Source: a virus. From it: a stretch of DNA of 64,000 nucleotides. Where the stretch lies: positions 99,542 through 163,541 of the IMG/VR virus record IMGVR_UViG_3300008116_000055; one strand, written 5' to 3'. This document shows, one piece after another, positions 14,113-15,443 of the stretch. The notes beneath the pieces are model-generated. The model searched no databases. It saw only the letters and a program-made list of their open reading frames with translations, and was not told where the DNA came from. The first letter of the stretch is position 1. Each line of letters opens with the position of its first letter. The position numbers and the translations under genes are program-made.

Positions 14113-14322
14113 ATGTCAAATAAAGAAAAGAAATACATCACGGATTTTTTTGTAATAAGAAAGAAATACCATTGGTTTCTTTTACCAACTCCCATATTTT
14201 ACTACCGTAAAGACACGTTTTTTGAAACCGGTGCAACCTCACCAAGCTGGGGTTTGGCTTTGAGATTCTTAATTTTTATGGTCGGTATTCAGATACAGAA
14301 AAACATATATTATAAAAAATGA
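14113..14322 (+). CDS. hypothetical small hydrophobic protein
   Basis: 69 aa ORF, 4-nt overlap with the GS gene. Confidence 0.3.
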   Translation: MSNKEKKYITDFFVIRKKYHWFLLPTPIFYYRKDTFFETGATSPSWGLALRFLIFMVGIQIQKNIYYKK

Positions 14323-15443
14323 AAACAAAAGTAGAATACGTATGGCTTGATGGGTATTCCCCTGAGCCAAATCTCAGAAGTAAAATAAAAATTGTGGACC
14401 TACCGGCACCATTTGAATTGAAACACATCCCCAATTGGGGGTTTGACGGAAGCTCAACTAAACAAGCGGAAGGTAACTTTTCAGATTGTTATCTTAAGCC
14501 AGTAAAATTATATCATACAAATAGTTCACTTGATACAGTATATGTATTATGTGAGGTTTTAGATGGTAATAATGAAATTCATCCATCAAATCATAGAGCA
14601 AAAGTAGGTGAGGAAGATGTAAATTTTTGGGTTGGATTTGAACAGGAATATTTTATTCGTTCTTCACATAATAATCCAATTCTTGGATTTGAAAGAAATG
14701 GTATCATTGACGGTCAAGGAATTTATTATTGTGGTGTAGGTGGACATATTGTTGGTCGAAATATTTCTGATGAACATTTGAACATGTGTTTAAAATATGA
14801 CATCAATGTGGAGGGAACCAATTCAGAGGTTGCATTAGGTCAATGGGAATACCAAATTTTTGCAACAGGTAAAATTGCCGCTTCTGATGATTTATGGATG
14901 AGTAGATATTTTTTACATAAAATTGCTGAGAAATATGGTCGTTCTATTGAGTTACATCCCAAACCGATGACCCACGGAGAATGGAACGGTTCAGGTTTAC
15001 ATACAAATTTCTCAAATCAAAAAATGAGAGAAGAGGGTGGTGAACAATACTTCAATGCAATTTTTAGGTCTTTTGAATCAAGAACACAAGAACATATTGA
15101 CTCTTATGGTTCTGATAACCATTTGAGATTAACAGGTCATTTTGAGACACAATCTATTGATAAATTTAGTTGGGGTGTCTCAGACAGAGGTGCATCTATC
15201 CGTGTACCAAAATCCGTTGGTGAGACATGGAAGGGTTATCTTGAAGACAGGAGACCAGCATCACACGCGGACCCATATAAAATCGTTAAAGTGATTAGTG
15301 ATAGTTTATCATTAGCCGAAGAATTAAATAATGTTCATCACATGATGAATGTTGAAATAGACACCGAAAAAATTGTAAATAAATACGGTACACTTTCAGG
15401 GGAGGAACTCTTGGAAAGTTATCGAAAAGATGAAGAAGAATAA
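14319..15443 (+). CDS. glutamine synthetase, type II (eukaryote-like)
   Basis: 374 aa. YVWLDG...LRSK N-terminal beta-grasp, [21 protein letters not shown], FEQEY and GQWEYQI metal-binding blocks, HPKP...[41 protein letters not shown]. Essentially all GSII catalytic signatures are present. Confidence 0.85.
   Translation: [374 protein letters not shown]

Follow-up and report, generated by a model that had tools for sequence, protein, structure and literature searches.

The stretch analyzed here (the window) comprises 64,000 nucleotides, positions 99,542 to 163,541 of the IMG/VR virus record IMGVR_UViG_3300008116_000055, and encodes on its plus strand a type II glutamine synthetase (GSII) of 374 amino acids, called the phage GS below. 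Its open reading frame (ORF) runs from ATG to TAA at 14319-15443, with the stop codon at 15441-15443. Three parts can be told apart, all on the plus strand: an N-terminal beta-grasp domain (residues 4-82, 14328-14564; Pfam PF03951 Gln-synt_N, 36.4 bits for a cutoff of 33.4), a catalytic domain (residues 95-333, 14601-15317; PF00120 Gln-synt_C covers residues 95-320 at 62.9 bits for a cutoff of 24), and a clade-specific C-terminal extension (residues 334-374, 15318-15440) that lies beyond the ends, at residues 327-333, of the alignments to Protein Data Bank (PDB) structures.

An initial annotation of the window had described a complete, eukaryote-type GSII with all hallmarks of the class. Completeness and class are borne out by the ORF, the two Pfam domains and the structure matches, and every motif string that had been quoted is present in the translation, including one of 34 and one of 28 residues. 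The sixteen top matches among solved structures are all GSII (1e-71 to 6e-82), led by 4bax from Streptomyces coelicolor (6e-82) and yeast 3fky (2e-80); fly, plant and mammalian structures follow at about 1e-71 to 1e-74 (human about 3e-73), and type I (GSI) chains appear at 6e-8 or worse. The NCBIfam models rank GlnII first (2e-96), then GSI (1e-12) and type III (GSIII, 4.5e-7); the gamma-glutamylputrescine synthetase model scores 24.8 bits, far below its cutoff of 650. The term eukaryote-type holds as a class label only. The phage GS starts directly with the beta-grasp domain, its residue 3 aligning to residue 4 of 4bax, and lacks the N-terminal extension of about 20 amino acids found in eukaryotes (residue 2 aligns to human residue 25, and residue 5 to yeast residue 26); it is 42% identical to human GS, and it groups with bacterial GlnII. 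The GC content of the gene (0.351 overall, 0.229 at third codon positions) is inside the spread of the other window genes. Judged from its sequence, we regard the product as a complete and genuine, though divergent, GSII.

Active site, selection and fold

Residues were mapped onto human GS numbering, with the human sequence checked against a chain segment of 9otp, from which it differs solely by the R298A mutation of that entry. Alignment revealed no loss of catalytic residues: all 21 metal, glutamate, ammonium and ATP/phosphate positions are identical between the phage and human enzymes, and the same 21 are invariant in 198 distinct sequences of the viral clade described below, which are 62-99% identical to the phage GS. 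Roles are assigned to these positions after the mammalian and plant GS structures. The metal ligands are E108, E110, E170, E177, H228 and E309 (human E134, E136, E196, E203, H253 and E338). The residues for glutamate, ATP and phosphate are W104, Y137, G224, N230, S232, R237, R270, E276, R290, R295, Y307, R311 and R312 (human W130, Y162, G249, N255, S257, R262, R299, E305, R319, R324, Y336, R340 and R341). The ammonium pocket comprises D43 and S46 (human D63 and S66) along with Y137 and E276; in GSII, D43 and S46 of the beta-grasp domain reach the ammonium site of the neighboring subunit.

The ratio of nonsynonymous to synonymous substitution rates (dN/dS, Nei-Gojobori) between the phage GS and six viral relatives is 0.06-0.15 for the core, which is under strong purifying selection in viral genomes. 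Combined with the invariance of the 21 catalytic residues, this shows selection on catalysis itself.

The AlphaFold monomer model recovers the GSII fold, with a predicted local distance difference test score (pLDDT) of 72.5 and a predicted template modeling score (pTM) of 0.76; its best PDB match is 4bax_A (TM-score 0.77). The low-confidence loops of the model are those that lie at subunit interfaces in the GSII oligomer, as expected of a monomer prediction. The phage GS would assemble into pentameric rings like other GSII, since each active site needs D43 and S46 from the beta-grasp domain of the adjacent subunit, and the conservation of these trans-acting residues suggests the usual GSII decamer, with two pentameric rings and interfacial active sites.

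The same positions bear on a more speculative proposal of the initial annotation, an amide ligase acting on another substrate. Such an enzyme would have the GS fold but couple glutamate, or a different carboxylate, to a polyamine, amino sugar or modified nucleotide in place of ammonium, perhaps feeding the glycan or DNA-modification genes. Members of the GS superfamily with acceptors other than ammonium do exist, such as PuuA and the Streptomyces enzymes GlnA3 and GlnA4. The viral clade is moreover divergent, scoring under the GlnII equivalog cutoff, and is set apart by its C-terminal extension and by one extra residue ahead of the WNGSG loop; the window also encodes a ThyA homolog that carries insertions, a class I/II aminotransferase, the products of a glycan cluster and a weak match to 2-oxoglutarate (2OG) oxygenases. 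Yet the ammonium-pocket residues D43, S46, Y137 and E276, as well as R270, R290 and G224, are invariant in the 198 sequences. We also screened the positions that are at least 85% conserved in 162 GSII from outside the clade (cellular sequences and unnamed representatives), and found no residue that is fixed in the viral clade and rare elsewhere. The alternative-acceptor enzymes known to us are GSI-like rather than GSII, and neither the glycan genes nor the thioesterase co-varies with GS in the related loci. An amide ligase is thus disfavored, and we consider it very unlikely.

C-terminal extension

The extension is predicted to be helical and is acidic at its end. It spans 40-70 amino acids across the viral clade, whose members measure 370-420 amino acids vs. 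330-349 for cellular homologs; some members carry about 25-30 further residues and end in EEIKFNLNG or a close variant. Eight positions are near-invariant (L336, M343, K355, S360, L364, L365, Y368 and D371). A hidden Markov model (HMM) of the tail alone matched no cellular GSII, the best non-viral hit having E = 0.29, and the extension has no significant match in Pfam. In the AlphaFold model the last core helix is prolonged to residue 344 (319-344) and followed by helices at 349-356 and 361-373. Wherever the synonymous rate could be estimated, dN/dS of the extension is 0.14-0.48, above that of the core and below 1; the closest comparison gives 0.14. The one-residue insertion preceding the WNGSG loop is found in viral sequences only in the alignment excerpt examined.

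The extension is a conserved, clade-specific add-on, for which oligomer stability or inter-ring contacts would be the likeliest role. A stronger version of this idea, which we think unlikely, is that the tail-bearing GSII is a phage-evolved variant whose helical extension confers a property missing from cellular GSII, reprogramming host nitrogen control rather than just adding enzyme copies. Candidate properties are a new inter-ring "thong" that alters assembly, insensitivity to feedback, and docking of a host nitrogen regulator or a phage partner.

Going further, the protein might be mainly a regulatory or moonlighting GS, whose extension binds a phage partner or a nitrogen regulator of the host and so rewires host nitrogen signaling in place of supplying glutamine. 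There is precedent among Gram-positive bacteria, where the GS of Bacillus controls GlnR and TnrA, and the tail fits the idea in being conserved clade-wide, with near-invariant hydrophobic positions, in being missing from cellular GSII, and in being under purifying selection in the closest comparison. The 21 invariant catalytic residues and the low dN/dS of the core show, however, that catalysis is itself selected for; no partner gene is consistently adjacent to GS, and the tail has no recognizable domain and a low-confidence model. A mainly regulatory GS is on balance distinctly unlikely, although regulation could supplement a catalytic role rather than replace it. We found no mention of a C-terminal extension in the accessible parts of papers on phage GS, and consider it the one part of the finding that is modestly novel.

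Distribution and origin

The initial annotation had placed the GS gene in viral DNA, and several lines of evidence agree. A PHROG survey of 61 window ORFs matched 41 families, on both sides of GS, among them helicase, phosphoesterases, deoxyribonucleotidase, NUDIX and endolysin. An independent ENA contig of 82.6 kb has identical gene order, and GS relatives recur throughout IMG/VR, where at least 558 viral stretches encode them; identity across residues 1-373 is 61-89% for the best 80. Searches of the 64 kb window identified no capsid or terminase gene, the large terminase subunit (TerL) and major capsid protein (MCP) included, and no family B DNA polymerase (PolB). The virus identity of the window rests on gene context and on matches in IMG/VR and the literature. 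The gene has the attributes of an auxiliary metabolic gene (AMG), being of host type, flanked by viral genes and conserved in related viruses.

The exact protein was found on 36 contigs in NCBI, JGI, ENA and Logan data, the longest of 288 kb, and relatives sit on contigs of 213, 295 and 321 kb. A word-indexed large protein database yielded more than 120 clusters of 370-401 amino acids at 68-100% identity. Cellular genomes were scanned with one genome per species for 185,579 bacterial and archaeal species, with WGFDGSST and EQEYFIR[SK] as search patterns that could overlook Bacteroidota GSII; the best identity was 57%. The best cellular matches end near residue 330 and come from Pirellula and other Planctomycetota, Verrucomicrobiota, Acidobacteriota and Alphaproteobacteria. 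When 1.84 billion representative proteins were searched exhaustively with HMMER, the tail-bearing family amounted to about one 50%-identity cluster (P0149, 64%), and the next representatives beyond it were 56% (P0152) and 52% identical. One member of the P0152 cluster is annotated "Gammaproteobacteria bacterium" in NCBI nr; its longest contig is 597 kb.

These searches also bear on whether the gene could be cellular after all, either a bacterial glnII that faulty assembly or binning put on the contig or one captured very recently from the host. GSII is known in several bacterial phyla, including some Bacteroidetes (PMC2978018), and the window has no capsid or terminase gene that would by itself prove virus identity. 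Genes of phage families flank GS on both sides, however, and many samples have yielded independent contigs with this gene order, the exact protein being present on contigs as long as 288 kb. No copy exceeds 57% identity in the species representatives, and none outside the tail-bearing family exceeds 56% in the HMMER search; the viral clade is monophyletic, and the composition matches phage. We judge a cellular gene to be extremely improbable.

The phylogenetic placement among GSII that the initial annotation had called for was obtained by neighbor-joining, with 195 sequences and 324 core columns. All 100 bootstrap replicates recover the viral sequences as a virus-only clade. This clade is nested among bacterial GlnII and not among eukaryotic sequences; its sister group is unresolved. 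Three GSII of huge phages of the type described by Al-Shayeb (LR756501, LR745206 and LR756502) fall outside the tail-bearing clade: the nearest neighbors of the first are alphaproteobacterial GlnII, and the other two make up a separate branch. Their placement elsewhere in the tree indicates that phages acquired GSII more than once, independently.

A eukaryotic or giant-virus origin was considered and rejected, given the missing N-terminal extension and the bacterial tree neighbors. Recent host capture was likewise set aside, given that no cellular copy is closer than 57% and that the composition is phage-like. GS is an old, stable resident of this phage group. An ancient Bacteroidota origin is possible. 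That Bacteroidetes lack GSII, as the earlier remark on their use of GSIII or GSI implies, is only partly true, as Bacteroidetes, Flavobacteria and Cytophaga are listed among the bacterial groups with GSII (Ghoshroy et al., 2010; PMC2978018).

Gene neighborhood

GS is part of a co-directional block that extends from about 12.4 to 55.9 kb and so measures about 43 kb. Upstream are an N6/N4 DNA methyltransferase gene (12480-13334, plus strand; PF01555, 3e-36) and, on the minus strand, a gene for a DUF192 protein of 131 amino acids (13337-13732; PF02643, 3e-18). The plus-strand run that contains GS begins 24 nt past this divergent gene with an 81-aa ORF (13757-14002), which is preceded by a sigma-70-like site, TTGACT-17-TATATT at 13720-13748, a consensus match only. 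Counts of promoter- and terminator-like sites around GS were not above those in shuffled sequence, in a scan whose scope excluded Bacteroidota-type promoters. A 69-aa ORF (14113-14322, plus strand) follows, and its stop overlaps the GS start codon in a 4-nt ATGA; this overlap suggests that the two are translationally coupled. Homologs of the 69-aa ORF occur in 9 of 81 related viral loci, and in the closest relatives they stand directly upstream of GS.

Downstream of GS, also on the plus strand, are a K/R/E-rich ORF of 54 amino acids (15450-15614), starting 6 nt past the GS stop, and after a 7-nt gap a 56-aa ORF (15622-15792), neither with a Pfam match. The stop of the latter overlaps, as TAATG, the start of a gene for a hotdog-fold (4HBT) thioesterase of 142 amino acids (15792-16220; PF03061, 1e-15; phrog_18230, 3e-24). 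The initial annotation saw an operon-like run of GS, two tiny ORFs and the thioesterase. The overlapping or nearly abutting junctions, and the lack of any plus-strand terminator-like site between 13.3 and 19.2 kb, support co-transcription, and physically the run is real; it is, however, part of the 43 kb block, and its thioesterase is found near GS in few relatives.

In a synteny comparison of the 81 related loci, a methyltransferase homolog is near GS in 57, a DUF192 homolog in 40 and a thioesterase in 11. The DNA methyltransferase is thus the most constant neighbor of GS in the phage clade, with DUF192 frequent; there is no obvious functional reason for their constancy. The genes usually run as follows: w35011-like gene, protein of about 255 amino acids, small ORFs, GS, DUF3310-like small ORF, methylase. 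A functional GS-thioesterase operon is not supported, the two being linked in only 11 of 81 loci. The order GS-x-x-4HBT recurs at both extremes of relatedness, in the closest relative (L082) and in the most distant (L151-L161), and may be an old backbone order, but it is no evidence for a shared pathway.

Most relatives have a conserved ORF of 85-99 amino acids directly downstream of GS (for example L099 9124-9405, L123 2529-2828 and L153 9203-9460), with the pattern VNHPSHYGG...AIKVI(D/E)AWDL...KYISRAGKK, which we take to be DUF3310-like. It is missing from the window, where the 54-aa K/R/E-rich ORF stands in its place. In L151-L156 and L160 a full-length DnaK/Hsp70 of 622 amino acids is encoded four genes downstream of GS, past the 4HBT thioesterase (L153 10716-12584, for example).

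The rest of the window and the host

Fourteen co-directional genes on the minus strand (835-11886) form a glycan-synthesis cluster. It includes two FkbM-type methyltransferases, at least four family-2 glycosyltransferases, a UDP-GlcNAc 2-epimerase (7122-8114; Pfam 4e-60) and a 485-aa GT2_5 protein (10429-11886), and resembles the core glycosyltransferase set reported for the moraphages, jumbo phages treated below. The glycan may be destined for DNA, the virion or the host surface. A thymidylate synthase (ThyA) homolog of 441 amino acids is encoded at 17381-18706 on the plus strand; it matches the 266-position Pfam profile in two stretches, which points to large insertions, and could be either a true thymidylate synthase or a dUMP/dCMP hydroxymethylase. 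Also on the plus strand are a class I/II, pyridoxal phosphate-dependent aminotransferase (38073-39182; Pfam 7e-21) and a weak match to 2OG-Fe(II) oxygenases (42630-43502; 24 bits, below the cutoff of 27). Other window proteins include NUDIX, MGS-like, Band_7/SPFH and SprT-like proteins and a 5'-3' deoxyribonucleotidase. A 458-aa ORF at 19132-20508 had no match by tblastn against phage records, and a tRNA scan of the window found none.

From 56000 to 64000 the GC content rises from about 0.32 to 0.37-0.39, genes are on the minus strand and GC skew is negative. ORFs here still match phage families (phrog_1006 and phrog_38666, for example), and the segment looks like a further module of the same phage rather than host DNA.

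The best relatives of the helicase are from phages of Bacteroides, Chryseobacterium, Flavobacterium and Salinibacter (31-36% identity), and over 150 nt the thyA gene matches that of Flavobacterium phage vB_FspM_immuto at 92% identity. By these likenesses the host of the phage is probably a member of the Bacteroidota.

Proposed function

Purine, pyrimidine, amino-sugar and NAD synthesis all draw amide nitrogen from glutamine. The initial annotation had suggested an AMG role in glutamine supply, and this is the best-supported reading. In full, we think it likely that the phage GS is a catalytically competent GSII, belonging to a virus-specific clade of large (about 200-320 kb) aquatic phages, and that it raises the glutamine supply of the infected cell. 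Made from the phage genome during infection, the enzyme would catalyze glutamate + NH4+ + ATP -> glutamine + ADP + Pi, and would raise or sustain glutamine synthesis independently of host GSIII or GSI and their regulation. The extra glutamine may help to replicate about 0.3 Mb of phage DNA in nitrogen-poor water, and the large glycan cluster would be a further use for it. At the level of the enzyme the claim is well supported by the conserved residues and fold; the physiological part, glutamine supply, we infer in agreement with published surveys.

Several observations weigh against glutamine supply by an ordinary GSII. The NCBIfam GlnII equivalog model NF041605 gives 323 bits over residues 1-330, short of its 500-bit cutoff, which makes the phage GS clade a divergent subfamily. 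The C-terminal extension is modeled at low confidence (pLDDT about 50-58), and its role is unexplained. Assignment to a Bacteroidota host is indirect, through the helicase relatives and the 150-nt thyA match. No glutamine-using amidotransferase is among the 25 listed of the 33 Pfam families in the 64 kb window, most of the genome lying outside it, and in this part the phage thus shows no glutamine sink of its own. Finally, we found in the literature searched no published biochemical or expression characterization of any viral or phage GS.

If glutamine supply is indeed the role, the phage GS would give viruses control over the step by which ammonium enters biomass in abundant aquatic bacteria, and viral GS would bear on nitrogen flow in lakes and oceans. 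For biochemical work on activity, regulation and tail function the clade is a well-defined object, and GS can serve as a marker by which this jumbo-phage group is followed through metagenomes and metatranscriptomes.

Comparison with known systems

GSII genes classified as viral were noted in ocean metagenomes by the Global Ocean Sampling study in 2007 (PMC1821046) and again in 2012 (PMC3379637). The Huge Phage Genome Collection, a 2025 preprint (10.1101/2025.02.27.640493), reports 248 GS genes in 247 huge phages, 215 of these phages being from freshwater and marine habitats, and proposes an AMG role. A 2026 survey lists glnA among jumbo-phage AMGs (PMC13037316). A 2025 paper on moraphages (PMC12619734) describes jumbo phages of up to 307 kb, primarily from freshwater, with predicted Flavobacteriia (Bacteroidota) hosts and core glycosyltransferases; GS is present in 9 of 25, and DnaK, in some of them, is of Flavobacteriaceae origin and is given as a moraphage trait. 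With these counts and the 558 or more stretches in IMG/VR, the earlier view that GSII is not a typical phage gene does not stand for this lineage.

The window and its relatives closely match the moraphages in the GS gene, a glycosyltransferase cluster (835-11886 in the window), an affinity with phages of Bacteroidota, DnaK (in relatives of the L153 type) and large contigs (288-321 kb here). We think it very probable that the window is from the published set of GS-carrying huge or jumbo phages; for membership in the moraphage lineage, which is defined by TerL, MCP and PolB phylogenies, the shared traits are circumstantial. The presence of GS in such phages is already published, and the finding is solid, not surprising; it leaves current concepts unchanged. 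In the parts available, the papers on huge and jumbo phages give GS presence and counts only. The present analysis contributes the typing as GSII, the monophyletic, virus-only clade, the active-site analysis with its invariant positions, purifying selection, synteny, and the conserved C-terminal extension.

The closest known enzymes are bacterial GlnII, such as those of Rhizobiales, Planctomycetota and Verrucomicrobiota, together with 4bax, the best structural match. They have the same two domains, the same beta-grasp start and the same active-site set, and are 49-57% identical to the phage GS over residues 2-330. Unlike them, the phage GS has the extension of 40-70 amino acids and the insertion before WNGSG, is phage-encoded, forms its own clade, and scores under the NCBIfam equivalog cutoff. 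The huge phages of the Al-Shayeb type (LR756501/LR756503, LR745206 and LR756502) also encode phage GSII, of similar core length; these are 43-54% identical to the phage GS, lack the tail and fall outside the tail-bearing clade. Three such tail-less genes (in LR756501.1 at 149789-150775, LR745206.1 and LR756502.1; our loci L162, L163 and L164) are in published huge phages of 630-735 kb whose records are unannotated. Eukaryotic GSII (human GLUL, yeast Gln1, plant GS1 and GS2) share the fold and the catalytic residues; these enzymes and the viral GSII of Mimivirus type differ from the phage GS, which groups with bacteria and is carried by a bacteriophage.

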